Source of the DNA: Nitrospina sp. | Lineage (GTDB): Bacteria > Nitrospinota > Nitrospinia > Nitrospinales > JACRGP01 | NCBI GenBank assembly: GCA_024648695.1 | Contig: JACAVV010000006.1 | Location: 164,458-228,457, forward strand | Length of the DNA: 64,000 nt | Reading direction: 5' to 3' | In this document: piece after piece, positions 10,612-55,310 of the stretch | Layout of the letters: the number at the start of each line of letters is the position of its first letter | How positions within the stretch are numbered: position 1 is the first letter of the stretch | The notes under the pieces: generated by a model | The model's input: only the letters and a program-made list of their open reading frames with translations | Told to the model about the DNA's origin: nothing | Database searches by the model: none | Program-made: the position numbers and the translations under genes

Positions 10612-11529
10612 TTAATTTTCAAATAATTCGGCATTAAGTTGAAAAAAATTTGAAACAGAAACATTAAAGTCATAAACCGTTTCAAAATAGCCCTTCAAGA
10701 CTCGAGTATAAATGATTAGCCCCTCAAACAAATCCTCGGGGTCTCCAATTCCAAAGTCATAATTGGCCAATTCGGTAACCAGCAGAGCCCGTGTTATTTT
10801 TCTGTTTTTCCTAGCAAGCTTCATTTTCCTTTTGGATTTTTGAATTTGTAAAAAGGCCTTTTCCAGCTCTAGCAAAGCTTTTCTATCCACCTTGCTTAAC
10901 AGGAACCCCGGATTCTTTTTACTTTTTGACAATATTGGAGTTTTATTTTTACTTTTGTTGTCCGTTTTCTTCCCAGTTATAGTTTCCTTCCCAAAACCAT
11001 TCACAAAATCCATCCAATTGAGGTAGGGAAACTTTTCTGGACTGAGTTTTTCTTCTTCAACTTTAAGAGGGTGATTTATATCGAGACCCAAAAGCAGGGC
11101 CAATTCCAGCTTTGCACTGGCAATATTATGCTCCAGGTCAATGATATCATTTTCAGTCCCTGCCAAACCAAGCTTCAGCTTGGTAATATTGGATTGAGAA
11201 ACATCGCCCTCCCCTTCATCAAAACTTTCTTCCGCTTTGGATATGGCTTTTTCGAAATGGCCTTTCACTTCTTTTGAAACGACCAACTGTTCTTTACTCG
11301 ATAAAATTAAATAATAGTTTCTCTCGACTTTGTATCTCAGTTGATGCCTGGTTCCATAATCCTTCGCATTCTCGTTTTTTAAAACCAAAGCTTTAGTAGT
11401 AGGTAAGCCAGAAATCACAAAAGGGTTGGGCTTTTCACTGGCCCAAACCTGGGGAGTATAAGGAATCCATAGCAAACCGAGGGAATAAATACATAAAAAC
11501 GAAACGATGAAAGTCTTAAAAAAGCGCAT
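10612..11529 (-). CDS. Exported TolC/OEP-like helical protein (short)
   Basis: Signal peptide from the ATG at 11529 (MRFFKTFIVSFLCIYSLGLLW...WASE); OEP-like segments AKLELALLLGL and ANYDFGIGDPEDL...VYDFNVSV; only ~305 aa. Confidence 0.6.
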   Translation of the reverse strand: MRFFKTFIVSFLCIYSLGLLWIPYTPQVWASEKPNPFVISGLPTTKALVLKNENAKDYGTRHQLRYKVERNYYLILSSKEQLVVSKEVKGHFEKAISKAEESFDEGEGDVSQSNITKLKLGLAGTENDIIDLEHNIASAKLELALLLGLDINHPLKVEEEKLSPEKFPYLNWMDFVNGFGKETITGKKTDNKSKNKTPILSKSKKNPGFLLSKVDRKALLELEKAFLQIQKSKRKMKLARKNRKITRALLVTELANYDFGIGDPEDLFEGLIIYTRVLKGYFETVYDFNVSVSNFFQLNAELFEN

Positions 11530-16450: not shown

Positions 16451-17281
16451 CTAACGAATCACGATTTGAACAGCCCCGTCTTTATTGTATTTGAAAACCG
16501 CCTTCATGGTTTCTTTTCCCAGCTGATTTTTCACAAGGTCCAGGAGTTTCAGATTTGGAAAGCTATTAGATTTTATCAATGCCACAGCACCGGTATCGGT
16601 CAATCCGTTTTGCCCCAGGTAAAAATTGATCAATTTTGGGAAATGTGTGGATTTTGCCAGGGAAACAGCACCTTCATCGCGAATTTCATTTCTGAACAGG
16701 CTCAAAGTTTCCAATTCCGGAAAATTTTTGGATTGTGCAATCTGCTCCGCACCTAAAGGGGTGATCAGGTTATCGTTCAGCAATAGCGTCTTTAAATGTA
16801 AAAAATGGTCCGACTCCACCATCAGGCCGACGCCATCATCACCCACTTCGTTTTTCCAGAGTTTCAACGATTCCAGGTTTTTTATATAAGGAGACTCCAC
16901 AAGCGCCAGCACCCCTTCATCACCCAGAAAATTTCCCCACAGATCCAAATGTTTTAAATTGGATAAATGTTTTGACTTGGCCAGTGCTTTCATTCCGGCG
17001 TATTTGATCCTGTTTCCCTGCAATAAAAGCATCGTGACATTTTTCAACTCTTTCATCTTTGCTAGTTTCCTGGCTCCTGCAGTTCCTATTTTGAGGCCGG
17101 ATAAATCCAAAGTGTCGCCATTTTCGCTTAATCTTTCCATTATGGTGGCCTTGAAATCCTTAGCCTCCACATTATGTATTGGGCTAATAAGAAATATTAA
17201 AACTGCGATCCAATATAGGGCTTTCAACGGATAGTTTGTCGAGGATGTCATAGGTTCCGGATGGTAAAGGTTATTTCCCAT
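16451..17281 (-). CDS. Exported RI-like leucine-rich-repeat protein (Lys-rich)
   Basis: Signal-like hydrophobic stretch; 28-aa repeats L..L..L.L..N.I.D.G...LA.S; start may be 17251. Confidence 0.85.
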   Translation of the reverse strand: MGNNLYHPEPMTSSTNYPLKALYWIAVLIFLISPIHNVEAKDFKATIMERLSENGDTLDLSGLKIGTAGARKLAKMKELKNVTMLLLQGNRIKYAGMKALAKSKHLSNLKHLDLWGNFLGDEGVLALVESPYIKNLESLKLWKNEVGDDGVGLMVESDHFLHLKTLLLNDNLITPLGAEQIAQSKNFPELETLSLFRNEIRDEGAVSLAKSTHFPKLINFYLGQNGLTDTGAVALIKSNSFPNLKLLDLVKNQLGKETMKAVFKYNKDGAVQIVIR

Positions 17282-26493: not shown

Positions 26494-27387
26494 TCAAGTT
26501 GCCGCGGCTCCAAGCTGAAACACCACTTTTTCCAACTTGGTCAAAGAGGATGAGTTCTTGAACAATTCCTGAACGTCGGGACTGATATCGTTATGAATCA
26601 AAACCAGAGTTTCAAGATTTATCAGTGACTTTGATTCTGCCAATGCCTTTGCACCGGTATCGCCTATTTCCGTTTCATACAGATCCAGAAGGGTGAGGTT
26701 CTTCAACCGCGTCGAATTTGCCAGCGCCTCGGCACCGCGGGTCCCTATAGGATTATATGTCAGGGTCAGTTGTGTCAGGTTTTCCAAAGCTTCAGAATTT
26801 GCAATGGCATCAACTCCGGCGGCTTCAATATAATTCCAGTTCAGATTCAGTTCAGTCAGTTTAGTAAGCGATTTGGAATTGGCAAGTGCGATGGCTCCCT
26901 CATTACCAATATTATTCCGGTAAAGAGAAAGCAGGTTCAAATGGGTCAGTGTTTTGGATTCAGCAAGGGCCTTCGCTCCTTCATCACCCAATTGATCACC
27001 GATCCATAAAGATACCAGACTGCCTAAAGTCTTCGAATTGGCAATTGCTGTGGCTCCTTCCGCCGTTATCTTGTTGTCGCTCAAAATTAATTCCGACAGG
27101 TTGAGGAAATTTTTTGTTTTTGCAATAGCTTTAACCCCAACGTCTGTTACTTCATTTTTAAACAAGTTTAAAACCGTCAGGTTTTTAAAGTAGGCAGATT
27201 CCGCAACCGCGCAAATACCCTTGTCTCCAACTTCATTAAATTCCAGAAACAGGGCGGTCACTGATTTCATTTTATCGGATTCGGCTAAAGCAACGATATC
27301 GTCATCTTTGAGTTCTTTTTCCCTCAGGTCGAGTTCCCCGTTCTCGACGTTATAACTTTCTTCTATTATCTGTTCAATATCTGCCAT
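26494..27387 (-). CDS. Cytoplasmic RI-like leucine-rich-repeat protein (acidic)
   Basis: About nine 28-aa repeats L..LT.L.L..N.IG..GA.ALA.S; no signal peptide. Confidence 0.88.
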   Translation of the reverse strand: MADIEQIIEESYNVENGELDLREKELKDDDIVALAESDKMKSVTALFLEFNEVGDKGICAVAESAYFKNLTVLNLFKNEVTDVGVKAIAKTKNFLNLSELILSDNKITAEGATAIANSKTLGSLVSLWIGDQLGDEGAKALAESKTLTHLNLLSLYRNNIGNEGAIALANSKSLTKLTELNLNWNYIEAAGVDAIANSEALENLTQLTLTYNPIGTRGAEALANSTRLKNLTLLDLYETEIGDTGAKALAESKSLINLETLVLIHNDISPDVQELFKNSSSLTKLEKVVFQLGAAAT

Positions 27388-27738: not shown

Positions 27739-28731
27739 ATGACGCAAAACGTTGAAGAGATCACCGCACGTGTTAAACAAAGTAGCGGCTTTATCCAGGC
27801 GCTAAATACGGAGTTGGAGCGTGTCATTGTAGGGCAGAAAAGCCTTGTGGAACGTCTGGTCCTGGGATTGTTGACCAATGAACACATTCTCCTGGAGGGT
27901 GTTCCGGGCCTAGCCAAAACCACTTCTGTGAAGGCTCTGGCAACCGCCATTCATGCCCATTTCAGCAGAATCCAGTTCACGCCGGATTTGCTTCCGGCGG
28001 ATTTGCTGGGCACTCAGATATACCAGCCGAAAACCGGCGAGTTTACAATTAAAAAAGGTCCCCTGTTCGCAAACATCATTCTGGCTGACGAAATCAACCG
28101 GGCTCCTGCCAAAGTACAAAGCGCACTTCTGGAAGCCATGCAGGAACGGCAAATAACGATTGCGGGAACGGAGTTTAGCCTGGATCAGCCCTTCATGGTG
28201 CTCGCCACCCAAAATCCGATTGAGCAGGAGGGTACCTACCCGCTTCCAGAGGCCCAGGTTGATCGCTTTCTGTTCAAGCTCAAAGTGGATTACCCGAGCC
28301 GAGATGAGGAAAAACTCATTATGCAAAGGATGTCGGACACCAACGGGTTTCCTCAAATTAAGGAAGTGGTCAAACCTGAGGATATTCTTAAAGCACGCGA
28401 AGTGATGAATCTGATCTACATGGATGACAACCTGAACGATTATATCGTCAATCTGGTAAGCGCGACCCGGAAACCGGAAGAGTATGGCTTGCAATCGCTT
28501 TCAGGCCTGATCCAGTACGGGGCGTCTCCGAGAGCCTCTATATTTCTTCACCGCGTTGCCAAAGCCTATGCTTATTTGCAGGGTCGTGGCTATGTGGTGC
28601 CCCATGACATCAAAAGTATTGGAACCGATGTTCTGCGTCATCGGATCATTTTGTCTTATGAAGCCGAGGCCGAAAACCTGGATACCGACGAAATCCTGAA
28701 ACGTATTTTCGACACGGTTGAAGTTCCTTAA
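27739..28731 (+). CDS. moxR: MoxR family AAA+ ATPase
   Basis: LLEGVPGLAKT, RIQFTPDLLPAD, LADEINRAPAKVQSALLEAMQE, ATQNPIEQEGTYPLPEAQVDRF, GASPR. Confidence 0.97.
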   Translation: MTQNVEEITARVKQSSGFIQALNTELERVIVGQKSLVERLVLGLLTNEHILLEGVPGLAKTTSVKALATAIHAHFSRIQFTPDLLPADLLGTQIYQPKTGEFTIKKGPLFANIILADEINRAPAKVQSALLEAMQERQITIAGTEFSLDQPFMVLATQNPIEQEGTYPLPEAQVDRFLFKLKVDYPSRDEEKLIMQRMSDTNGFPQIKEVVKPEDILKAREVMNLIYMDDNLNDYIVNLVSATRKPEEYGLQSLSGLIQYGASPRASIFLHRVAKAYAYLQGRGYVVPHDIKSIGTDVLRHRIILSYEAEAENLDTDEILKRIFDTVEVP

Positions 28732-28748
28732 TCTGGCTGGTTATTATC

Positions 28749-29702
28749 ATGGCTTGGAATCCTATAAAGGCAGTTTTTAATCGGTCCGCTCCCCTGCCCC
28801 CTGCGGCTGAACCGGAAACCGAAGCGCAAATTCCGCCGGACCTGATGGAAAAGATACGTGCCATTCAGGTTCGAGCCAACTATCTGGCTAACGATATCAT
28901 GGCGGGAGAATACGTTTCGGCCTTCAAGGGACGGGGAATGGAGTTCAGCGAGGTGAGGGAATATTTACCCGGTGACGATATTCGTTTGATCGACTGGAAC
29001 GTCACTGCCCGAATGGGCCATCCTTTTATCAAGGAGTTTCGGGAGGAACGGGAACTGACCTTGATGTTGATCGTTGATGTGAGTTCGTCCGGGGATTTCG
29101 GAACGGTCAATAAGTTCAAGAATGAGGTATCTGCAGAACTGGCTTCTATCCTGGCTTATCTGGCAATCAAGAATAATGATAAAATCGGATTGATGGTGTT
29201 TTCAGATAAAATCGAACACTACGTTCCCCCGAAAAAGGGCCGCGGCCACGTGTGGAACATCATTCGCACCATTTTGAATTTTAAACCGCAAAGTCGAAAG
29301 ACGGATCTCAAGGCACCCCTGGAATATTTGATGAGAGTTCATAAGCGCAAAATGGTCACTTTTTTTATTTCTGATTTTCAGGACAGCGGGTACGAAGCTT
29401 CCTTCAAACTGGCCAAACAAAAGCACGATTTAATAGCCGTTTCGGTATACGATCCCAGGGAGGCTGACTTGCCCAATATAGGATGGCTCCATCTTGAAGA
29501 CCGGGAAACGGGAGAAAAAATGTTTGTGGATACCAGTGACCGCGACCTCATGAAGGATTACAAAAAGCGCGTCGAAGCAATTCGGGCCAATCGCAACCGC
29601 TTTTTCAATTCAATCGGGATCGATACTATCGAAATCGACACAGATGGCTCTCTGGTCAATCCTATTCTGAAATATTTCAAGTTACGAGAACACCGGCACT
29701 AA
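28749..29702 (+). CDS. DUF58 domain protein
   Basis: GRGMEFSEVREYLPGDDIRLIDWNVTAR, KEFREERE, DVSSS, ISDF; directly after moxR. Confidence 0.95.
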   Translation: MAWNPIKAVFNRSAPLPPAAEPETEAQIPPDLMEKIRAIQVRANYLANDIMAGEYVSAFKGRGMEFSEVREYLPGDDIRLIDWNVTARMGHPFIKEFREERELTLMLIVDVSSSGDFGTVNKFKNEVSAELASILAYLAIKNNDKIGLMVFSDKIEHYVPPKKGRGHVWNIIRTILNFKPQSRKTDLKAPLEYLMRVHKRKMVTFFISDFQDSGYEASFKLAKQKHDLIAVSVYDPREADLPNIGWLHLEDRETGEKMFVDTSDRDLMKDYKKRVEAIRANRNRFFNSIGIDTIEIDTDGSLVNPILKYFKLREHRH

Positions 29703-30136
29703 TGGCTGAATCATCCGCATTTAAAATTCCGCAGGAAGGGGTCGGTACCAGGACCAAGGTGTTTGTTTTTATTCTGACAGTCGTCACCCTTCTGGTGGGA
29801 ATGGCGCTGATGTTTAAAATCGTCAAGAAATTCATTTCTCCCTCCAGAGAAAATTTTCAAATGGAAAGCACTATTTTACCCCTGGCCGAAAAACTGGAGG
29901 GCGCCGGGTTAAGCCAGCAAGCGATTGCGCAATATCAAAAAGCCCTGAAGGCGCTTCCACTCAATCGGCAAAAGAAGGCTGAAATTTCTTTTAAGGTGGC
30001 TACTCTATATAACGCCAAGGGAAACTGCCAGCAAGCGGTGGAATGGTATTTCAAAACACAGATTATGGCCCCTGAATTTGCACGCCAAAATCAAGTGGAC
30101 TCTCTGATTCAACCCTGTTTGACTCGTTTGAAATGA
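29702..30136 (+). CDS. Membrane-anchored TPR-like protein
   Basis: One TM helix, then TPR-like AIAQYQKAL...VATLY...A.EWY; translationally coupled on both sides. Confidence 0.7.
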   Translation: MAESSAFKIPQEGVGTRTKVFVFILTVVTLLVGMALMFKIVKKFISPSRENFQMESTILPLAEKLEGAGLSQQAIAQYQKALKALPLNRQKKAEISFKVATLYNAKGNCQQAVEWYFKTQIMAPEFARQNQVDSLIQPCLTRLK

Positions 30137-31167
30137 TGGTGTTATTTCGAAAATTCATTTTTATTTTGATTGCCTCGGTATTCCTGTATCCCTCCCCGTC
30201 CTTTACGCAGACAATATCATCCGAAAAGTCCAATCAGAATAAAAAAGAAAATTCCACTACGGGCCCTTTAGAAGTCACTGCCAACATAGATAAACCCCTG
30301 GCAACAATAGGAGAAATAATAACCATCACTCTTGAGTCCCACTTCGACCCTGACCTTACTGTAACTTTTCCGGAATTTCCCCAGGATTTTGAAGGATTTG
30401 ATTTTGTCGACAAGCAACTTGGTAAAATCACTCAGGCCGTAGATAAAAAACAACAGAAAGCCTGGTATCGGTTGCGTGCCGATCAGGTAGGAACGTTTAA
30501 AGTTCCTCCCTTGAATATTTCTTACAGCATGCCTGCCGAAGAGGGTCAACCATCTGTAGAAGGCGAGGTTTCCACTCCGGAACTCAGTCTAAAAATTCAA
30601 TCGGTCCTCAACCTTCAGGGTGAACCGAAGGATATTCGCGATATCAAAAATATTGTCGGGCCCGGTAGAGACTGGACGCCTTATATTATTGGTGCGGTTA
30701 GTTCCATCGTTGCCCTGGTTTTGTTTCTTCTATGGAGAACCAGAAAGCAATCACGCACCACTCAAGCCAAAGCACCGGAACCCGAGGTCCCCATTCATAT
30801 TATCGCCCAGAATGAGTTAAATGCGTTGTTGGCGAGGGGCTATTTAGAGCAAGGTTTATTCCCGGAATTTCATTTCGAATTATCTGAAATATTTCGCAGG
30901 TACCTGGGTGCGCGGTACGAATTCCCGGCACCTGACTGGACCACCGAAGAGATTGCTCCCAAATTGACAGAGCTTGATGACCTGGGTGAGGCGGACCGTA
31001 TTCAGATCCTTTCCATATTGAGGCAATCAGACCAGGTAAAATTCGCCAAAGCACAAGTTGATAGTCAGGCCAGCCGCGACTTGATCGATTCTGTTATCAA
31101 ATACGTTCAAAAAGCGGGTGAACGCGAAAAGCCCAATCCGCTTTATTCCACTCAATCCACCACTTAA
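30133..31167 (+). CDS. Bat-operon membrane protein (BatD-like N-terminus plus DUF4381-like part)
   Basis: Signal peptide, IG..I.I.L Ig-like domain, DIRDIK-TM, LSEIFRRYL, D.VKFAK. Confidence 0.8.
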   Translation: MMVLFRKFIFILIASVFLYPSPSFTQTISSEKSNQNKKENSTTGPLEVTANIDKPLATIGEIITITLESHFDPDLTVTFPEFPQDFEGFDFVDKQLGKITQAVDKKQQKAWYRLRADQVGTFKVPPLNISYSMPAEEGQPSVEGEVSTPELSLKIQSVLNLQGEPKDIRDIKNIVGPGRDWTPYIIGAVSSIVALVLFLLWRTRKQSRTTQAKAPEPEVPIHIIAQNELNALLARGYLEQGLFPEFHFELSEIFRRYLGARYEFPAPDWTTEEIAPKLTELDDLGEADRIQILSILRQSDQVKFAKAQVDSQASRDLIDSVIKYVQKAGEREKPNPLYSTQSTT

Positions 31168-31172
31168 GCGTC

Positions 31173-32171
31173 ATGGAATTTTTTCGTTTTCAGGATCCGT
31201 GGATTTTGGTGTGCATGCTGTTGATTCCTCTCATTCACTCTTTTGACCGGAAAAATAGAAAGGGTGCGGTTTATTACTCCTCGATTCATGATTTGAAAAG
31301 CCTGCAACCGGCGGCTACTTCCTTATTGATGGCCATCCCTACTTTCCTCCGTTATATGGTCATCATTCTCGTTGTTCTGGCGTTGGCCCGACCGCAGGAG
31401 GGAAGGAAAAGTCAGGAGATTATGTCGTCTGGTGTCGATATCATCATGGCCATAGACACATCGGGAAGTATGCGTGCGATGGATTTCATGCGTGACAAGG
31501 AGCGCATTGACCGACTGGAAGCGACCAAAGATGTGGTTCGCGAATTTGTCAAGGATCGGCCACACGATCGTCTGGGAATGGTGGCTTTTGGAAACGAAGC
31601 CTTCACTCAATGTCCCCTGACCCTGGATCATAATATTCTAGTTTCGTTTCTGGACAAACTGGAAATAGGGATCGCGGGCGATTCCACAGCAATCGGTTCC
31701 GCGATTGGTATTTCGACCAAGCGCTTGAAAGACCTAAAATCCAAATCCAAAATTGTAATCCTTTTGACAGACGGACGAAGTAATGCGGGCAACATTCCTC
31801 CACTAAAAGCGGCGGAGATCGCCAAAACTTTTGGTATCAAAATTTATACTGTAGGAATGGGCACGGAGGGTAAAGCGCCTTTTCTAGTCAATACTATTTT
31901 TGGCGAGCGTTGGGTGTACAAACAGGTCGATTTGGACGAGGATACCTTGAATGCCATCGCCGACACCACGGGGGGACAGTATTTTCGGGCCACAGACAAG
32001 GAATCGCTGGAACAGGTTTACGAACAAATCGACCAAATGGAAAAGTCGGAAGCGAAGGTCATTGACCATTCTGAATATTCAGAACTGTATGTCTATTTTC
32101 TTGCAAGTGCGATTGGGTTACTCTTCCTTGAAATCATATTGACCCATACCTGGTTGAGGAGAACCCCCTAA
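31173..32171 (+). CDS. batA: VWA domain protein, BatA
   Basis: F.DPW N-terminus, ALARPQ, MIDAS DTSGSM, TAIGSAI, LLTDG. Confidence 0.92.
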   Translation: MEFFRFQDPWILVCMLLIPLIHSFDRKNRKGAVYYSSIHDLKSLQPAATSLLMAIPTFLRYMVIILVVLALARPQEGRKSQEIMSSGVDIIMAIDTSGSMRAMDFMRDKERIDRLEATKDVVREFVKDRPHDRLGMVAFGNEAFTQCPLTLDHNILVSFLDKLEIGIAGDSTAIGSAIGISTKRLKDLKSKSKIVILLTDGRSNAGNIPPLKAAEIAKTFGIKIYTVGMGTEGKAPFLVNTIFGERWVYKQVDLDEDTLNAIADTTGGQYFRATDKESLEQVYEQIDQMEKSEAKVIDHSEYSELYVYFLASAIGLLFLEIILTHTWLRRTP

Positions 32172-33157
32172 TGAAATTCGCTCAACCGCAATGGCTCCAC
32201 CTTCTTTGGCTCTTGTTGGGATTTCTTTGGTTTTTCCGTTGGTCCTTCAGAAAAAAGCAAAAGATCCTGTCTACATTTTCCAGTCCGGAACTGGTAGAGC
32301 AATTGATCCATCCGAAGGTTCAGCGAAAACAGAAAAACCGAGAGAGGTTTCTCATTATATCTTCCACCCTGATGGTTCTGGCCCTGGCTCAGCCGCAATG
32401 GGGCTTTGAATGGGAAGACCTAAGGCAACAGGGCGTCGATGTCGTGGTCACTCTGGATGTATCCACCAGCATGATGGCGGAAGATATCAAACCCAACCGC
32501 CTGACCCGCGCCAAGCACAAAATTGCCGATTTATTGAGTATGCTTGAAGGAGACCGCATCGGCCTGGTGGCTTTCGCCGGAATAAGTTTCCTGCAATGCC
32601 CCCTGACTCTCGATTACAATGCGGCCGCCCTGTTTCTCAATGCCATTGAAACCGATTTGATTCCAGTACCGGGCACGGCCATCGGGCACGCACTGCAAAC
32701 TTCTCTGAAGGCGTTTAACGCAGAAGAAAAAAAATCAAAGGCCATCATTCTAATCACAGACGGAGAAGACCATAGAGGCGATGCGTTTCAGTTTGCACAG
32801 CGCGCCAAGGAAGAAGGCGTTAAAATATTTACGATTGGTATTGGCCAGGAGTCCGGGGCTCCCATTCCGGACCCTGCAAAAGGGGGATTCAAAAAAGACA
32901 AACGCGGAGAAGTTGTGATCAGTAAACTGGATGAGATCACATTGCAAAAAATCGCTCTGGAAACCGGCGGGACCTATGTGAGGTCGGTCACCGGCGATAT
33001 GGATTTACAAAAAATCTATTTGGAAGACATCAAGCAGACGGTGGAGAAGAAGGAACTCACCACCACACGCAGAAAACTGTGGCAGGATCGATTTCAATGG
33101 TTTCTTGCTTTTGCCCTGGTTTTGCTATGTGTGGAATTCGTTTACAGGGAAAATTGA
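32171..33157 (+). CDS. batB: VWA domain protein, BatB
   Basis: ALAQPQWG, DVSTSMMAEDIKPNRL, DRIGLVAFAG, PLTLDY, ITDGEDH. Confidence 0.92.
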   Translation: MKFAQPQWLHLLWLLLGFLWFFRWSFRKKQKILSTFSSPELVEQLIHPKVQRKQKNRERFLIISSTLMVLALAQPQWGFEWEDLRQQGVDVVVTLDVSTSMMAEDIKPNRLTRAKHKIADLLSMLEGDRIGLVAFAGISFLQCPLTLDYNAAALFLNAIETDLIPVPGTAIGHALQTSLKAFNAEEKKSKAIILITDGEDHRGDAFQFAQRAKEEGVKIFTIGIGQESGAPIPDPAKGGFKKDKRGEVVISKLDEITLQKIALETGGTYVRSVTGDMDLQKIYLEDIKQTVEKKELTTTRRKLWQDRFQWFLAFALVLLCVEFVYREN

Positions 33158-39862: not shown

Positions 39863-40035
39863 GTTCCTACCAGTTCAGAACCAAAAATCATAAGGAAACA
39901 TCCATTCCCTAAAAGACGAGGAAACCATCCCAGGTTTCCCTGTTGCCTCCCGCAAATAAGAAATTTAAACACAAAAAATAGGAAATTTATTATAATATAT
40001 AGGAAATACACCCATTACCTTAGAGTAAGCTTTTT

Positions 40036-40048
40036 TAAACCGTTGATT
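40036..40048 (-). promoter_or_regulatory. IHF-binding consensus site
   Basis: Minus strand AATCAA-CGGT-TTA. Confidence 0.5.
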
Positions 40049-40124
40049 TAAAAAGTTCAATATTCCGGCTAAATTTAAATTTTGATTTTTTCCAAAGCAA
40101 GTTATTTCAAAGTTTGGGAATTTT

Positions 40125-41192
40125 ATGAACATCATTTTGAATAGTTATTGCAATTTAAAGTGTAATTATTGTTTTGCAGATGAATATATGGAGGAAACCG
40201 TCCGATCTCCGGAAAAATCAATGGATCTGGTTTTTTTCAATAATAAATTGCTTCCCAAAATCAAAAATAATCTGGTGATAAACTTTATGGGAGGCGAACC
40301 GACTTTACATCCTCAGTTCAATGATATTTTTAGCAATACCTTGAATTCGATGCAACCCTACACCTACCTTGGCGTATTTACCAATGGATTGATGCCCGAT
40401 TCGGTGCTGGAACTTTTGAAAAAAGCTATCAGCGTGAGAGGAAGCATAAAACGCCATATCACCTTTTCCGTTTTACTAAATTGGCAAACCCTCGAAAACA
40501 TCTCCGAGAAAAACCATCAACGCTGTAAGGAATCTGCTTTAACCCTGCTCCAGGTAAACGGCTATGGGGTCACCTTCAGCATAAACCTGTATTCAAAATC
40601 CCAGGACCTTTGGAGACAATGCAGTGAAATCGACGCCATTTACCAAAAACTGGGTTTGCCTGATGACAAGGAATACCGGATCCGGATCAGTCCCGCATTT
40701 CCCATAGTGGGCGAAATGGATAACTTTTATTTGCCAATCAGGGATTATCCGGTTTTGGGAAAGGAGATGGTCAAAATTCTAAAAGAATTCCCGCAAATGG
40801 CTTTTCGATTCGATTGTTCGTTCCCCCCCTGTTTCCTGGACGAAATCGAAGAAGAGGATTTTCATTTGGCCGGGCGGTTTTATTTTCATGGCTATCAACA
40901 GGTACCACCTATTCAGGAATGGGCCAACCAGGATCTTTATTTCGGATGCGCCGATGGAAGTCCTATGGACATTGATGGCAAAGGCGATTGCTTCAACTGT
41001 TTTCCGTTTCACAATCTGAAACTGGGCAATATAGAAAATTTTAAAACCGTGAATTCAATCGCCAGCGCCAAAATGGGCTCGTCCTTTTTAAACCATGTAT
41101 TCGATAAAGCAGAAACCAAAGAACCCTGCCGGTCCTGCCCCCACTACATGGAACGCTGTTCCAGCGGATGCTTCGCTTATAATTTTGTTTAA
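40125..41192 (+). CDS. Radical SAM protein with SPASM-like C-terminal domain
   Basis: CNLKCNYC, MGGEPTLHP, FTNG; C-x(14)-GDCFNC-like auxiliary cluster and CRSC.....RCSSGC. Confidence 0.92.
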   Translation: MNIILNSYCNLKCNYCFADEYMEETVRSPEKSMDLVFFNNKLLPKIKNNLVINFMGGEPTLHPQFNDIFSNTLNSMQPYTYLGVFTNGLMPDSVLELLKKAISVRGSIKRHITFSVLLNWQTLENISEKNHQRCKESALTLLQVNGYGVTFSINLYSKSQDLWRQCSEIDAIYQKLGLPDDKEYRIRISPAFPIVGEMDNFYLPIRDYPVLGKEMVKILKEFPQMAFRFDCSFPPCFLDEIEEEDFHLAGRFYFHGYQQVPPIQEWANQDLYFGCADGSPMDIDGKGDCFNCFPFHNLKLGNIENFKTVNSIASAKMGSSFLNHVFDKAETKEPCRSCPHYMERCSSGCFAYNFV

Positions 41193-41204
41193 AAAGAAAA
41201 ATTC

Positions 41205-41822
41205 TTAAATTGAAATTATTTCAAAATGAGATTTTAACGAATCGAGTCCCTCTTTGACCCAATCCAGGTTTTTAAAAGAATCATCCTGAACGCTGTGAAT
41301 TCGAATAAGCTTGAGATAATCGTTTTCTTTCACTAGCGACCTGAGTTTTTCCTCAGAACATTCAGGGATACGAAAAAACTTTTCCTGTTCCCATTCCCAG
41401 GGTGTAGGTACAAAAGACAGGTAGGTTTCATTACAACTTACAATAGATTTATTTTGAATCAAATTCTCAGCAAATTCGTTCAGCCGATGCCCTTTAAGAA
41501 TCAGGGAAAACCCGAGATAATGCCCCCACCAAAATAAAACACGGAAAGTGAACATCTCAGTTTTGGAAAACATTTGCGGCATGTCCAGGGAACGAAACGG
41601 AAATCCGTTCAGGTTTTCGCCCCGAACTAAATGGCCTTCTATGATATCGGCTTCCTCTGGAATCAGGCCCTTGTAAGCGTCCAGTTCAAGGACGATGGCG
41701 TCTCTCAGAGCATTGAGGCGGTGCTCTGCTTTCTTTAATATTTGGGGCTTTATTTGAAACAATTCAGTATTTTGAAGCGTTTCAAATTCTTTCGCTTCCC
41801 AGGAATCTTCTAATGAATCCAT
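41205..41822 (-). CDS. Conserved hypothetical protein
   Basis: 205 aa with a distinctive RGEN..GFP...LD.P..FSK....FR.LFWWGH core; last gene of the motAB-pilZ run. Confidence 0.7.
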   Translation of the reverse strand: MDSLEDSWEAKEFETLQNTELFQIKPQILKKAEHRLNALRDAIVLELDAYKGLIPEEADIIEGHLVRGENLNGFPFRSLDMPQMFSKTEMFTFRVLFWWGHYLGFSLILKGHRLNEFAENLIQNKSIVSCNETYLSFVPTPWEWEQEKFFRIPECSEEKLRSLVKENDYLKLIRIHSVQDDSFKNLDWVKEGLDSLKSHFEIISI

Positions 41823-41853
41823 TTTTACCTAACTGGCAGAGGGGAGGAATGTT

Positions 41854-42243
41854 TCAAATGATTTGCTTTTTGCGAATTTCATACTTTTGCCGCTCCAATA
41901 CGTAAAGATGAATTTCCTCCTGCGCCTGCTTGCCAAGGCTCATGAAACGCGCATTGCAGGTTCCCTTATCGTCCATTCGCAGAATTTTCAATTGACCCTG
42001 AATTTCATCGGCTACTCCAGGTAGGGAAAACCGGATAGGATAGATCTGATTTAACTGAAAATCTTTGCCCATAAAAGCAACCCCTCCCGAACTGATGTCC
42101 AGGATAGGAACCGACTGCTCCTTAAATTGAAGAACCACCGGTTCATCCTCATGCGGTTTCACCCTGAAGGCATTTCTTGCCTGCTCGGGAATATTAAAAA
42201 GCTTTTTCGGCTCCTTATCTTTTTTTGGCTTTTTCCAAAACAA
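41854..42243 (-). CDS. Single-domain PilZ (c-di-GMP receptor)
   Basis: RNAFR (RxxxR) and DISSGG (DxSxxG); TTG start with AGGAGG 7 nt upstream, inside the end of motB. Confidence 0.9.
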   Translation of the reverse strand: MFWKKPKKDKEPKKLFNIPEQARNAFRVKPHEDEPVVLQFKEQSVPILDISSGGVAFMGKDFQLNQIYPIRFSLPGVADEIQGQLKILRMDDKGTCNARFMSLGKQAQEEIHLYVLERQKYEIRKKQII

Positions 42244-43732
42244 TTTCTACCCTCCTGTTTTTGGCTCGCCCCCAAACCGTATCATTGGGCGCTATGGGAA
42301 AAATATCAGCAAACCCCGTAGCTGTCAATCGAGTGGCATCAATGCCTTTATCCAGAAAATAACGCAAAACGGCAGTCGCTCGAGACGCCGACAATTCCCA
42401 ATTGGTGGGAAAGCGCGGCGATTCAATTGGCACATCGTCAGTATGCCCTTGAATATTGACCTGGTACTCGGGAAATTTCTTGCTGACTGCCACTATTTCA
42501 TCAAGGACCGCGCGAGCCTTCATTTGCAAATCGGATTCTCCCGGTTTGAACAGGGTTTGACCAGGGAGTCGCAAAACGATCCTGGACTTGTCTGTAGAAA
42601 CTGATAATTTTGAATCCAGGTTTCCACGTTGCAAAACCGTATTCATCTCTGAATAAATATCATTGGATTTCAAACCGGCCAAGTTGGCAATACGCTCATT
42701 TAAATTGACGCTGTCCAAAAGCTCCAGGAGACCCACACTCGCCGATTTCTGACCCATAATAGCGTTTTTAAATTTTTCCACGTTTCTGGCAGATAAAGAA
42801 TAATAAAGAATGAAAAGGGTCAACAACAATGTCGACATATCGGAAAATGTGATCATCCAAAAGGGAGCTGAAGGTTCTTCATCAATTAACTCATCCGACA
42901 TTTGCTTGATTTTCTTACGATCCCGATTGATCGCTTTCAACTTACTTTCCCATTCGGTTTCTAATTTATAGATTTCAGCATTCAATCGACGTTCAAATGT
43001 ATTTTTGTCTTCATCAAGTTTTTCTTTAAGTTCTTCCGTTTCTCTCCTTAAACGATTGCACTCATCTTCCAGGTCTTTTTGAATGGTTAATGCAATAGAG
43101 TCCTCTTCACCCGATTTCGAACTTTGAACTTCCAAATCCCTTAAATGGTCGAATTGTGACTTATTCTGGTCCAAAACCTTTTTATAAGAGTCGGCCAATT
43201 CATTCTTCTCATCCAACAACTTTTCGTACCGACCATTTATTTCCTCGAATTTTTGCTTTAATATGCCAACCTCTTTTTTTAAACTTTCTACCGCCTCCGG
43301 TTTTTCTCGAGCCTTTCGAATTGCTTTTGCTAGCAATTCCCGTTCCTTAACCAATTTCTTCTTTTCAAGTTGTTCGGCCTTTATCAATTTGCTCAATTGC
43401 TGGTTTTGTTCTTTTAAATCCTGAATCGTTTGTTCCAGATGAGGGTCTAACCGGGGACCTTCCGCCGACATTTCAGCAGGTGACTCAGGCGACTCCGTTT
43501 GGTCCGTTAGGCTTGGACGTCGAATGGACTTTAAGGCTTCATTCTTAATCTCAATTTGCTCTTTTAAATCGGATACCATCCTTTCCTTGATCGTCTGAAT
43601 TTCCTGGATCTTGGCCTCATAATGAACACTTTCTGAATTTTTTTTACGCAGTTCGCGATTCTTGGCCCGTAACTGCTCTTTTAATAGTTCAATATTTCTT
43701 TGGTTATCCATATTTAACAAGCCATCCTGCAA
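42215..43732 (-). CDS. motB: MotB/PomB-type stator subunit with a very long N-terminal coiled coil
   Basis: WMITFSDMSTLLLTLFIL TM with the essential Asp; OmpA-like domain (GHTDDVP, NWELSASRA, NRRVE); ~285 aa heptad-rich N-terminus; ATG at 43711 is an alternative start. Confidence 0.9.
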   Translation of the reverse strand: MQDGLLNMDNQRNIELLKEQLRAKNRELRKKNSESVHYEAKIQEIQTIKERMVSDLKEQIEIKNEALKSIRRPSLTDQTESPESPAEMSAEGPRLDPHLEQTIQDLKEQNQQLSKLIKAEQLEKKKLVKERELLAKAIRKAREKPEAVESLKKEVGILKQKFEEINGRYEKLLDEKNELADSYKKVLDQNKSQFDHLRDLEVQSSKSGEEDSIALTIQKDLEDECNRLRRETEELKEKLDEDKNTFERRLNAEIYKLETEWESKLKAINRDRKKIKQMSDELIDEEPSAPFWMITFSDMSTLLLTLFILYYSLSARNVEKFKNAIMGQKSASVGLLELLDSVNLNERIANLAGLKSNDIYSEMNTVLQRGNLDSKLSVSTDKSRIVLRLPGQTLFKPGESDLQMKARAVLDEIVAVSKKFPEYQVNIQGHTDDVPIESPRFPTNWELSASRATAVLRYFLDKGIDATRLTATGFADIFPIAPNDTVWGRAKNRRVEIVLEKAKKR

Positions 43733-43733
43733 A

Positions 43734-44492
43734 TTACTGATTCATGGGCCTTCTGAGTTTTGTGGGAATATAGGATGAAAGCTTTTCATAAACGGCAATG
43801 GGGTTGTTATTTTCCAATATCGAAACACCTCCCTCAAAAATAATTTGCAGGTTGATAACCTCAAGAACCGTCCGCGCCTTTAGTTTGCCTGCTATGGGAA
43901 GAAAAAATAGGGTCGATAAAATAGACCCATAAAGAGTGGTCAACAAAGCCACGGCCATGGCGGGACCCACGGTTTCCGGATTGGATAATTCATTGAGCAT
44001 TTGCACCAGTCCAATCAAGGTTCCGATCATGCCAAAGGAAGGCGAGTAAATAGCCATTTTTTTGAAAACGTCCTGAATAATAAAATGACGCTGTTTCATG
44101 GAATCGATTTCAATTTGCAAGGTGTCACGAATGATTTCTTCCTTGGAACCATCAGAAATCATAATGCATGCTTTTTTGAGGAAGTTTGACTCGGTTTCAA
44201 TTTTGCTTAAAGCCAATAAACCCGCTCTGCGGCTTAGAGTACAGAGCTCTAACATGGTAGCGACCATGTCATTGGGGTCTTCGCGTTTTTCAGAGAAAAC
44301 AAGAATGGCGGCTTGAAAAGCCGTTTTTACATCTTTTAGCTGAAAGGTTATCAAGGTTGCCGCGATGGTTCCGCCAAGGACGATCATGACTCCCGGCAAA
44401 TTCACGAAATTTAAAAGTTCTCCACTAAGAAAAATTGCCGTGATAATCAGTGAAATACCAGAAAGTATTCCAACAAAGGAACCTAAATCCAC
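43734..44492 (-). CDS. motA: MotA/PomA-type stator subunit
   Basis: MDL....G, IVLGGT, PSFGMIGTLIGLVQML, GPAMAVALLTTLYG, LPIAGKL; GTG start. Confidence 0.93.
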   Translation of the reverse strand: MDLGSFVGILSGISLIITAIFLSGELLNFVNLPGVMIVLGGTIAATLITFQLKDVKTAFQAAILVFSEKREDPNDMVATMLELCTLSRRAGLLALSKIETESNFLKKACIMISDGSKEEIIRDTLQIEIDSMKQRHFIIQDVFKKMAIYSPSFGMIGTLIGLVQMLNELSNPETVGPAMAVALLTTLYGSILSTLFFLPIAGKLKARTVLEVINLQIIFEGGVSILENNNPIAVYEKLSSYIPTKLRRPMNQ

Positions 44493-44839
44493 CCTTGGTC
44501 ACCTCGAAAAGTCTAATGTTTTCAATTAGTTTGGATAATCGACTGTACCATGAAGCCTTCCGGGATTCAACAGCTTCCTTAAAGCTTCTTAAGCCGCAAA
44601 TCACCTTGTCATAATTTCGGAAGCACCCCTAAAGATTCCCAAAAAACAAAGTATGATTTTATTTTTCAATGGCCTACGTTATGTATCGGACTTTTTTTAC
44701 AACAGATAAGGAAGTAAAGGGATAAATCGCCTGTTTTGGCCATTTAGGTAGGGGATCTCGCGAGTGGTAATCATCGCGGATGGCAATTTCGGGTCCGTTA
44801 AAATTTTTGGGAAAGTAAAATCTGGGATAACTAGCCAGG

Positions 44840-45994
44840 TTATTGGGTTACCTGCCTCATCTGCTTAACCAGGACGGTGATTTTATTCGCTACCGTTTCC
44901 AAATCTTCTGTGGATATTCCCCACCCCATACTGATCCTTATAATGGATTGAATATCCTTTTCTGGCAGTTTCATAGCTGTCAGAACAGCGGATGGCAAAA
45001 CGGTTCCGGAACTGCAGGCGGTTCCAGTGGAAACGGAAACACCTTCCATGTCCAATGCGATCATTAATGATTCCCCCACCACTCCGGGAAACCCTAAACT
45101 AAGGGTGTTCGGCAAACGAAAAGTCGGGTGACCATAACATCTGACATCTGGCAATTCCTTTTTAATTTGCAAAAGCAGAGATTCCCTGAGGTCTTCCAGG
45201 CAAGGGTCCGGCTCATTTTCTAATCGGGATTGGGCAAGTTCGCATGCCTTGGCCAGACCGACGATTCCGGCTACATTTTCGGTACCACCGCGGCGTTTTT
45301 TTTCCTGTCCTCCTCCTGAAATAAGCGGTACCAAAGGGGACAATCCTTTTCGAATAAATAAGGCACCCACACCTTTTGGACCATACAGTTTGTGTGCAGA
45401 AAGGGATAACATATCTACCGGAGTATCCGCGAGATTCCAGGGTAGTTTTCCAACTGTTTGAACGGCATCGACGTGAAATGGAATTCCCATACTTCGAGCC
45501 ATTTCACCCATGCCTTGAATATTCTGCAAGGTCCCAATTTCACTATTGGCGTGTTGAACGGATAGCAAGGCTGTGTCTTTCCGAAGCATCGACTGCAGTT
45601 CGTCCATATCCACAATGCCATTACAATCTACCGATACGTAATCGACCTCAAAGCCCAATCGCTCCAAATCACTGCAAACATTCAGTACCGACGGATGCTC
45701 AATCTGACTTGTAACAATATGTCGACCCCGTCTTTTTTCTGACCAGGCCAAGCCCTTGATAGCCATGTTATTCGATTCGCTTCCGCCACTTGTAAAAACG
45801 ATTTCGGTGGGTTGCGCTCCTAATAAACTCGCGACAACTTCTCTGGATTCATCCAGGCGCACCCTTGCTGTCCGGCCCTGACTGTGAATGCTGGAAGGAT
45901 TGCCAAAATGTTCTTTCAGAATCGGAAGCATCGCTTCCAATACTTCCGGATGCAGGGGCGTTGTTGCATTATGGTCCAGATAAATCGTTTTCAC
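44840..45994 (-). CDS. Cysteine desulfurase (IscS/NifS family)
   Basis: YLDHNATTP, FTSGGSESNN, SAHKLYGPKG (PLP Lys), STGTACSSG (catalytic Cys). Confidence 0.95.
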   Translation of the reverse strand: MKTIYLDHNATTPLHPEVLEAMLPILKEHFGNPSSIHSQGRTARVRLDESREVVASLLGAQPTEIVFTSGGSESNNMAIKGLAWSEKRRGRHIVTSQIEHPSVLNVCSDLERLGFEVDYVSVDCNGIVDMDELQSMLRKDTALLSVQHANSEIGTLQNIQGMGEMARSMGIPFHVDAVQTVGKLPWNLADTPVDMLSLSAHKLYGPKGVGALFIRKGLSPLVPLISGGGQEKKRRGGTENVAGIVGLAKACELAQSRLENEPDPCLEDLRESLLLQIKKELPDVRCYGHPTFRLPNTLSLGFPGVVGESLMIALDMEGVSVSTGTACSSGTVLPSAVLTAMKLPEKDIQSIIRISMGWGISTEDLETVANKITVLVKQMRQVTQ

Positions 45995-46065
45995 GAAAAG
46001 TACGAATGAATAGGTTGGATGGAAGAAAGGGTCAATAAATCAGGCAAGGCACCCGAAAAAAGATG

Positions 46066-54851: not shown

Positions 54852-55310
54852 TTAATCTCGCGGCTTGTACCGCCACCCTTCCCTTTTTTTACAGGACCAG
54901 CCGTCGTGGACCTGAAACGTTTGCAATCCCTCAAGTGTTTCGGAATTGAACAGAGCCAGAAGCCCGTGGCCCTCAATGGGGTTGTCCTTCAAATGCAGGC
55001 GTTTCAGTTTTTTCAAATAGGGCGATTTAGACAGCGCGAAGAGTCCCTTGTCTGTCACTCCGTTCTTGTTCAAGTTCAAGTACTGAACATTTTCCAAGAG
55101 GGCGCAGGCGGCTAAATTCTCGACACCCTCATCGCCAAGATTGTTATCATCCATATCGAGCCAGGACACTTCTTGCAGGCGCGGACTGCTCCAAAGCAGG
55201 CGTGCTTCTTCCGGTTCCAGGTCCAGTCCCGAGACCATTAACTGATTGCCGCGAATACGGCCTTTAAAAATGAGTTCCACATCATCAAATTTTTGCCTTA
55301 CTGACATCAA
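54852..55310 (-). CDS. Short RI-like LRR protein
   Basis: About three 28-aa repeats (LDMDDNNLGDEG, LNLNKNGVTDKG, LHLKDNPIEG). Confidence 0.8.
   Translation of the reverse strand: MMSVRQKFDDVELIFKGRIRGNQLMVSGLDLEPEEARLLWSSPRLQEVSWLDMDDNNLGDEGVENLAACALLENVQYLNLNKNGVTDKGLFALSKSPYLKKLKRLHLKDNPIEGHGLLALFNSETLEGLQTFQVHDGWSCKKREGWRYKPRD

Follow-up and report, generated by a model that had tools for sequence, protein, structure and literature searches.

Analysis of a 64,000-nucleotide stretch of the Nitrospina sp. genome (assembly GCA_024648695.1, contig JACAVV010000006.1, positions 164,458 to 228,457 of the forward strand; hereafter the window) uncovered a four-gene operon on its minus strand, which encodes a stator A subunit (MotA2), a stator B subunit (MotB2) with about 284 mostly helical residues ahead of its membrane region, a PilZ protein and a protein of no assigned family. 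The MotA2-MotB2 pair is equipped as a wall-anchored 5:2 ion motor would be, given that MotA2 is PomA-like and that the Asp, the plug and the OmpA-like anchor are all present in MotB2. The explanation that we favor, and to which we give about an even chance of being right, is that the operon specifies an accessory stator, controlled by cyclic di-GMP (c-di-GMP) and probably driven by sodium, with a non-rotating stalk projecting into the cytoplasm.

The motB2 gene (42215-43732) encodes 505 amino acids when read from its earliest possible start, a TTG codon; the database copy of the protein starts at an ATG 7 codons downstream and has 498 residues. Its architecture, which includes the Pfam MotB_plug and OmpA domains, bears out an earlier note on this DNA that had placed the Asp near residue 298, an OmpA-like domain in the same protein and about 285 residues ahead of the membrane helix. 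Codons 1-284 (42881-43732) specify a helical, coiled-coil-like cytoplasmic extension, as delineated by AlphaFold2, heptads and conserved blocks; codons 285-326 (42755-42880) an acidic patch, the membrane helix with Asp298 and the plug (MotB_plug at 285-325); and codons 394-493 (42254-42553) the OmpA-like peptidoglycan-binding domain (Pfam OmpA, 1.7e-18). All 24 aligned relatives keep Asp298, residues 289-503 match the MotB of C. sporogenes (6ysf, E 8e-35), and the OmpA-like domain resembles the periplasmic domains of the solved MotB, PomB and MotS structures. Residues 1-284 matched no solved structure.

The N-terminal region (residues 1-288) is rich in Glu (16%), Lys (13.5%) and Leu (12%), and an AlphaFold2 model computed with 24 relatives predicts helices at residues 3-71, 97-141, 145-189, 191-203 and 209-283; the membrane helix comes next, at 291-326. 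The helices are broken at 72-96 and 204-208, and the model confidence drops below 50 at 72-94 and 204-209, which coincides with the two breaks (near 72-98 and 200-212) that had been read from the letters earlier; over the entire protein the mean pLDDT is 73.5 and the pTM is low (0.34). The heptad contrast of the region exceeds that of shuffled sequences (mean of 0.42 versus 0.27) and 28% of the 28-residue windows lie above the 95th percentile, although the signal is strong only in part, chiefly at residues 127-185. As the heptad pattern is clear only in part, we use the safer wording of a coiled-coil-like helical stalk. If all 247 predicted helical residues stood in line at 0.15 nm each they would span 37 nm; hence the rod of 35-40 nm suggested earlier is retained as the upper bound of a fully extended stalk and not as its likely length, for the pTM is low and the kinks at 142-144 and 190, together with the two flexible breaks, imply that the stalk could fold back. 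The 24 relatives share conserved blocks in this region, with L113, E175 and K176 invariant, and the mean pairwise identity is 30% in the extension versus 59% in the rest of the protein. Some members bear additional helical insertions of about 70 to 140 residues, and in Nitrospinota the extra N-terminal residues amount to about 250-440, mostly helical. The 14 residues ahead of the membrane helix have a mean net charge of -3.3 across the long-MotB family, and a basic segment precedes this acidic patch in MotB2.

A search of 5.8 billion proteins recovered 417 relatives of MotB2, and those that name an organism, including Nitrospina watsonii, are all Nitrospinota. In 116 of the best 120 of the 417, which were measured, the Asp lies at or beyond residue 240 (median 300, maximum 456); among the four shorter ones one record is labelled partial and two are on short contigs. 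Scanning species-representative genomes with the long-MotB alignment retrieved at least 80 loci, all with a short MotB and almost all from other phyla, with no long Nitrospinota orthologue among those listed; one of them (L011) is the short-MotB locus of a Nitrospinaceae genome. A MotB reading frame is present in 79 of the 80 listed loci. The Asp motif could be placed in 72, in 71 of which it falls between residues 20 and 66 of the longest open reading frame (ORF) available. Thus, an extension found in 116 of the best 120 relatives was encountered in none of these 79 MotB genes, and judged by these comparisons the N-terminal length of MotB2 is exceptional for a MotB, as the earlier note had held. 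An apparent MotB of 562 residues in L072 (Rubrivirga) was rejected as an out-of-frame over-extension across motA, on a contig of 71% G+C. Neither the remainder of the window nor the 80 listed loci contained an ORF matching a profile of the N-terminal region, the ESM Atlas returned no usable match to the first 285 residues, and no paper turned up in a literature search for a MotB with a coiled-coil extension at its N-terminus. A 2025 survey of MotAB diversity makes no mention of Nitrospinota, PilZ or coiled coils in its main text (PMC12505986). A long cytoplasmic stalk on the stator B subunit is hence a layout without description in the literature searched. To our knowledge, the cytoplasmic end of the B dimer in described 5:2 motors is a short disordered stub, and long appendages belong to the A subunit.

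An extension of this kind might have arisen as an artefact, either through a sequencing error that fused two genes, or because translation in reality starts near Met278 and yields a short MotB, both of which the earlier note had named as findings that would overturn it. Met278 indeed stands 20 residues before Asp298, and a Met is found 9-35 residues ahead of the Asp in 66 of the best 120 relatives. However, such a Met is missing in the other 54, no ribosome-binding site was seen ahead of Met278 on reading the sequence, and the long open frame recurs in 116 of these 120 relatives, independently and in many assemblies. The N-terminal region moreover has conserved amino-acid blocks, invariant residues and confidently predicted helices. 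As the extension recurs in relatives with its conserved blocks, a fusion artefact or an untranslated leader is very improbable, and on this comparative evidence we take the extension to be real.

The motA2 gene (43734-44492) starts with GTG and encodes 252 amino acids (Pfam MotA_ExbB, 1.8e-24). The protein aligns without gaps with residues 1-243 of PomA from V. alginolyticus (8brd, 8bri; E 7e-50), and the PomA numbering is therefore valid for it. MotA2 retains P151, T158, T185, T186 and P199, as well as R88, R89 and D114, and has Ser at position 96 and Ile at position 232. According to PMC10374538, every Na+ stator conserves Thr158, Thr185 and Thr186, and H+ stators have Ala in place of T158 and T185. 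All three are Thr in each of the 18 MotAs of the clade to which MotA2 belongs (see below), and the betaproteobacterial loci in our set have Ala at both 158 and 185. The coupling ion of MotA2-MotB2 is thus probably Na+.

Several observations indicate that this pair coexists with a canonical stator in related genomes. The Nitrospinaceae locus L011 encodes a canonical pair, with a MotA of 273 and a MotB of 264 residues, and orthologues of this short MotB, at 64-99% identity, bear Nitrospinota names, including the 'MotB1' of N. gracilis and a protein of N. watsonii. In N. watsonii the short and the long MotB are encoded on one contig of 3,011,914 bp, and another complete genome has both on a contig of 4,244,043 bp. 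Flagellar genes have been reported in Nitrospina-like genomes (passages of PMC5029188 and of PMC11995701, the latter naming the source genome of L011), and N. gracilis has 97 coding sequences assigned to the COG class 'cell motility' (PMC3578206). The short MotB and the published flagellar genes of related genomes argue that MotA2-MotB2 is a second stator and not an orphan, and by homology it is a paralogue of the canonical stator found in related Nitrospinota genomes. The case in which this would be the sole stator, raised in the earlier note as a refutation, is inapplicable in the relatives N. watsonii, N. gracilis and the genome with the 4,244,043-bp contig, as they have the canonical short MotB. 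Likewise, the description of the operon as stand-alone is correct for the window, which lacks flagellar and chemotaxis genes, and fails for the related genomes, which carry a separate canonical short MotB and, as far as the sources cited here cover them, flagellar genes.

The pilZ gene (41854-42243) encodes a PilZ-only protein of 129 residues (Pfam PilZ, 1.4e-5), in which both c-di-GMP-binding motifs, RxxxR and DxSxxG, are intact, so that at the level of motifs the c-di-GMP gating through PilZ proposed in the earlier note has support. Compared with solved structures it gave no match at E 1 or better. Ahead of RxxxR, this protein and those of L001, L003-L007 and L009 have in common a basic N-terminal motif in which several Lys come after Phe-Trp. 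The inner cytoplasmic surface of PomA is described as very negative (PMC10374538), and this basic motif could be the part that docks onto the stator. The fourth gene (41205-41822, 205 amino acids) was called hypothetical in the earlier note, and the ORF is indeed present and falls in no Pfam or NCBIfam family. It has 525 relatives, of which all that name an organism are Nitrospinota, and a Pfam scan of 38 family members produced nothing credible, including no DUF1054 match at E 1 or better. Its AlphaFold2 model is confident (pLDDT 89, pTM 0.87), and at a cut-off of E 0.001 its sole fold match is 2a8e, an uncharacterized protein of B. subtilis (E 4.6e-4, TM-score 0.52) and a DUF1054 member; 3mqz, an entry titled DUF1054, ranks 19 among the fold matches. 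In the ESM Atlas only clusters of about 200 residues without names were retrieved, and the look-alikes were commonest in Bacteroidota, which we treat only as a lead. The gene order in Nitrospinota was judged by a proxy, namely contigs of identical size common to the lists of fourth-gene and long-MotB relatives; there are 13 such cases, three of them on short contigs (3312, 5185 and 7146 bp), from which it appears that the fourth gene accompanies the long motB. The 80 listed loci contained no match to a profile of the fourth gene. A predicted complex of two copies of MotB2 residues 1-300 with the fourth protein scored 0.00, a value that counts neither for nor against binding.

Outside Nitrospinota, a PilZ-only gene of about 127-149 codons overlaps or abuts the end of motB in at least 11 loci (L001, L003-L007, L009, L010, L012, L013, L074), which belong to Desulfobacterota and one gammaproteobacterial genome and have a short MotB of 243-254 residues. 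Their PilZ proteins have RxxxR, DxSxxG and the basic N-terminal motif in common with that of the window; the PilZ profile was built from nine of these proteins, and L010, L012 and L013 are independent matches to it. In a careful tree of 60 MotBs, covering the membrane helix to the end, the long MotBs form a single clade (ultrafast bootstrap/SH-aLRT support of 100/98), which groups with the pilZ-linked MotBs and those of L002, L017 and L021 (100/98). The short MotBs of Nitrospinota form a separate clade (100/100), and a second Desulfobacteraceae group is its sister (100/99). The same picture emerged from a quick tree of 102 rows; L074, missed by the trimming motif, was left out of both. These trees imply that both phyla have two stator paralogues, and their topology indicates that it was the pilZ-linked stator that gained the extension and the fourth gene in Nitrospinota. 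The Desulfobacteraceae genera Desulfotignum and Desulfobacula own both stator types (L005 and L013 versus L015, L019, L023 and L073), which implies that the stator duplication predates Nitrospinota or was shared between the phyla. In L017 the 437-nucleotide gap between motB and lpxC (10870-11308) has no PilZ ORF of 60 or more residues, and the close relative L006 has pilZ at the corresponding place, so that pilZ may have been lost recently in L017. Genes of the HD_5 (HD-GYP) type were also observed directly upstream of three stator pairs, as GAF plus HD_5 genes at two pilZ-linked pairs (L010:7814-9028 and L009:64-486) and as a response regulator plus HD_5 gene at the canonical pair of L011 (7815-9098); going by their domains, these would be c-di-GMP phosphodiesterases. 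A literature search on pilZ-linked stators and c-di-GMP in Deltaproteobacteria gave nothing on this clade among the matches listed.

Based on these observations we propose that ion flow, probably of Na+, would rotate the MotA2 pentamer around the MotB2 dimer, both N-termini of which would exit the MotA2 ring at its cytoplasmic opening and form a non-rotating stalk of at most about 35 nm when fully extended. PilZ loaded with c-di-GMP would bind the cytoplasmic face of the stator and bring about a brake or disengagement, as do MotL, YcgR, MotI and FlgZ. The stalk would present a fixed platform beside the rotating ring, which could keep PilZ, the fourth protein or a part of the motor in place, or could tie stator units to one another.

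Individual aspects of this arrangement are reminiscent of several known systems. PomAB of V. alginolyticus resembles it in its A subunit, which aligns without gaps and shares P151, T158, T185, T186, P199, R88, Lys or Arg at 89 and D114, and in the Asp, plug, OmpA-like domain and acidic patch before the membrane helix of PomB; it differs in that the Asp is residue 24 of PomB rather than 298, and E96 and R232 of PomA are Ser and Ile in MotA2. We know of no PilZ gene adjoining PomAB. MotL of S. putrefaciens is a PilZ-only protein of 144 residues with RxxxR and DxSxxG, encoded directly downstream of motAB (PMC8203827). It parallels the window PilZ in gene position and intact motifs; however, 34 bp separate motL from motB, and motL closes a flagellar gene cluster and accompanies a lateral-flagella stator described as proton-dependent, whereas in the window pilZ overlaps motB2, MotB is long and no flagellar cluster is near. 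The motA-motB-pilZ order highlighted in the earlier note is accordingly not novel as such, being preceded by MotL and by the at least 11 loci from other phyla. FlgZ with MotCD (P. aeruginosa), MotI (B. subtilis) and YcgR (E. coli) are likewise instances of a PilZ protein acting on one stator A subunit where two stators coexist, and FlgZ is described as binding MotC but not MotAB (PMC8203827). These proteins differ in having an extra YcgR-type N-terminal domain and genes that do not overlap motB. MotD of the MotCD pair is also the best NCBIfam match of MotB2, at a score below the cut-off. In Campylobacter jejuni, FlgX supplies an elongated helical cytoplasmic element under each stator unit and is reported to stabilize the stator ring (PMC11725899). 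FlgX acts in trans, while the cytoplasmic element of MotB2 is a part of MotB itself. Compared with the flagellar-type ('FIT') stators of PMC12505986, MotA2 has the same combination of a MotA_ExbB channel with a large cytoplasmic torque-generating domain, and MotB2 the same Asp in a single membrane helix, plug and OmpA-like domain; it is the short cytoplasmic N-terminus of the 'FIT' B subunits that MotB2 does not share.

In the PomA literature the torque helix of FliG is met by R88, K89, R232, D114 and E96, of which the charges of R88, D114 and E96 were indispensable for motility in the assay used there (PMC10374538). MotA2 has kept three of these five charges and hence lacks the full set, and the short pair of L011 has all five. 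We compared 18 MotAs of the pilZ-linked clade (one from the window, those of the four representatives closest to it and 13 from the loci) with 87 other MotAs, omitting three rows (L012, L046 and P0366) as fragments or misaligned. Arg is present at position 88 in 17 of the 18 versus 78 of the 87 others, and Asp at position 114 in all 18 versus 80 of 87. On the other hand, an acidic residue at position 96 was found in only 2 of the 18 as against 83 of 87, and Arg or Lys at position 232 in 2 of 18 as against 64 of 87. We take E96 of PomA to be equivalent to E98 of E. coli MotA. The latter is described as the partner of FliG R281 (PMC12505986). The lost charges of E96 and R232 thus suggest a weakened or altered grip of MotA2 on the FliG rotor, as might be expected of an accessory stator called upon under particular conditions.

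The loss of these two charges, one of them reported as indispensable, is one of the points that weigh against an accessory flagellar stator. To it must be added that all NCBIfam stator models scored below their cut-offs (at best 229 versus 341 for PomA with MotA2 and 149 versus 283 for MotD with MotB2), that no flagellar gene was found beside the pilZ-linked stators at 11 listed loci, that among the 61 chosen ORFs of at least 90 residues in the window no flagellar or chemotaxis Pfam family was matched outside the operon, and that swimming has never been seen in cultured Nitrospina according to the relevant passages of PMC5029188. A rival possibility is a wall-anchored 5:2 ion motor that is not flagellar, whose output is not FliG and in which the MotA2 ring works against the fixed MotB2 stalk with PilZ and the fourth protein bound to it; such a motor would serve as a c-di-GMP-gated envelope, signalling or transport device. 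It is consistent with the disappearance of both charges across the pilZ-linked clade (16 of 18 at each position) and their retention in the short MotAB of Nitrospinaceae, with the housekeeping surroundings of the operon both here and in 11 related listed loci, with a stalk and a fourth gene that have no counterpart in any flagellar motor described, as far as our structure, Atlas, profile and literature searches extend, with the lack of motility in cultured Nitrospina and, as a lead, with the prevalence of Bacteroidota among the Atlas look-alikes of the fourth protein. We nevertheless consider it rather unlikely, if a serious contender. The plug, the OmpA-like anchor and the large cytoplasmic domain are flagellar-stator traits that, in the account given in PMC12505986, are missing in non-flagellar relatives, and all are present here; R88, R89 and D114 are kept in MotA2; every group holding the pilZ-linked clade also has a second stator paralogue or flagellar genes reported in the sources cited above; and MotL provides a precedent for a PilZ gene after motAB that serves a flagellar motor (PMC8203827). 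An accessory flagellar stator therefore remains our preferred reading.

A bolder proposal, which we offer as speculative and unlikely to be right, is that the pilZ-linked stators constitute a distinct class of sodium-driven 5:2 motors with a wall anchor, in which the loss of E96 and R232 did away with the grip on FliG, and that in Nitrospinota the fixed axle formed by the B subunit was drawn out into a cytoplasmic stalk; against this stalk the rotating A ring would work, or it would be clamped by PilZ with c-di-GMP and the fourth protein. If true, this would be the first 5:2 motor with output or control through a cytoplasmic extension of its stationary subunit. The pairing of a MotAB-like motor with a long cytoplasmic helical tail also calls to mind the Zorya anti-phage system. 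ZorAB is a 5:2-type motor in which a long cytoplasmic helical tail is borne by the rotating A subunit, and which needs ZorC and ZorD. By this analogy the operon would be a defence system with a long cytoplasmic tail passing on a signal, and MotB2 does weakly match the ZorB profiles of PADLOC (best 1.4e-19), mainly through its OmpA part; the only other signal in a PADLOC scan of the four genes was a weak coiled-coil match to LmuB. MotA2 matched none of the ZorA profiles, nor did MotA2, PilZ or the fourth protein match anything in PADLOC, and neither ZorC, ZorD nor other defence families were found in the four genes or their neighbors. The tail is on the B subunit and not on the A subunit, a contrast that the earlier note had drawn correctly, the operon is conserved throughout a phylum among housekeeping genes, and flagellar-type stators are its nearest relatives. 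In view of this a Zorya-like role is extremely improbable.

A conserved helical stalk of this length on the stationary axle beside a rotating ring would be a natural handle, which could be an anchor for a brake, a scaffold under the stator like FlgX or a new output. The pilZ-linked stators, in which two rotor-contact charges are consistently lost, may more generally form a class with a different rotor engagement, which would bear on stator choice under c-di-GMP control in bacteria with several stators. Nitrospinota rank among the major nitrite oxidisers of the sea; swimming has never been observed in their cultured members, yet flagellar genes and two stator types have been kept.

The tight coupling of the operon noted earlier was evident on reading the sequence, all ORFs lying on the minus strand. 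A single nucleotide separates the motA2 stop from the earliest possible start of motB2. The ribosome-binding site of pilZ (AGGAGG, 42251-42256) and its TTG start (42243-42241), 7 nucleotides further on, both fall within the final 42 nucleotides of motB2, which ends at 42215, as had been claimed, and the two genes overlap by 29 nucleotides. The fourth gene starts 31 nucleotides past pilZ. The operon ends with it, since the next gene is convergent; this encodes a radical SAM protein whose C-terminal part is SPASM-like (40125-41192, plus strand). Other neighbors are housekeeping genes, including lptD, a folC-like gene, a nifS-like gene, scpA and the trp operon. A promoter and terminator scan upstream yielded fewer sites than expected by chance, and no sigma-28 or sigma-54 consensus was found upstream of motA2. 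No Rfam family was detected in positions 40000-46000, which argues against a c-di-GMP riboswitch there. A sigma-70-like site (10 of 12 matches, with TG) was noticed at 42300-42328 on the minus strand, inside the end of motB2 and upstream of pilZ, from which a separate transcript of pilZ and the fourth gene could start; the scan that gave it found fewer sites than shuffled sequences did.

Two further features of the window are unconnected with the operon. Three ORFs of LRR_6-type leucine-rich repeats (16451-17281, 26494-27387 and 54852-55310, all on the minus strand) are an unusual number for 64 kb of a bacterial chromosome. An operon of the 'aerotolerance' type, with a MoxR-type AAA ATPase, a DUF58 protein and BatA/VWA proteins, occupies 27739-33157 on the plus strand and has two middle ORFs without a known family.

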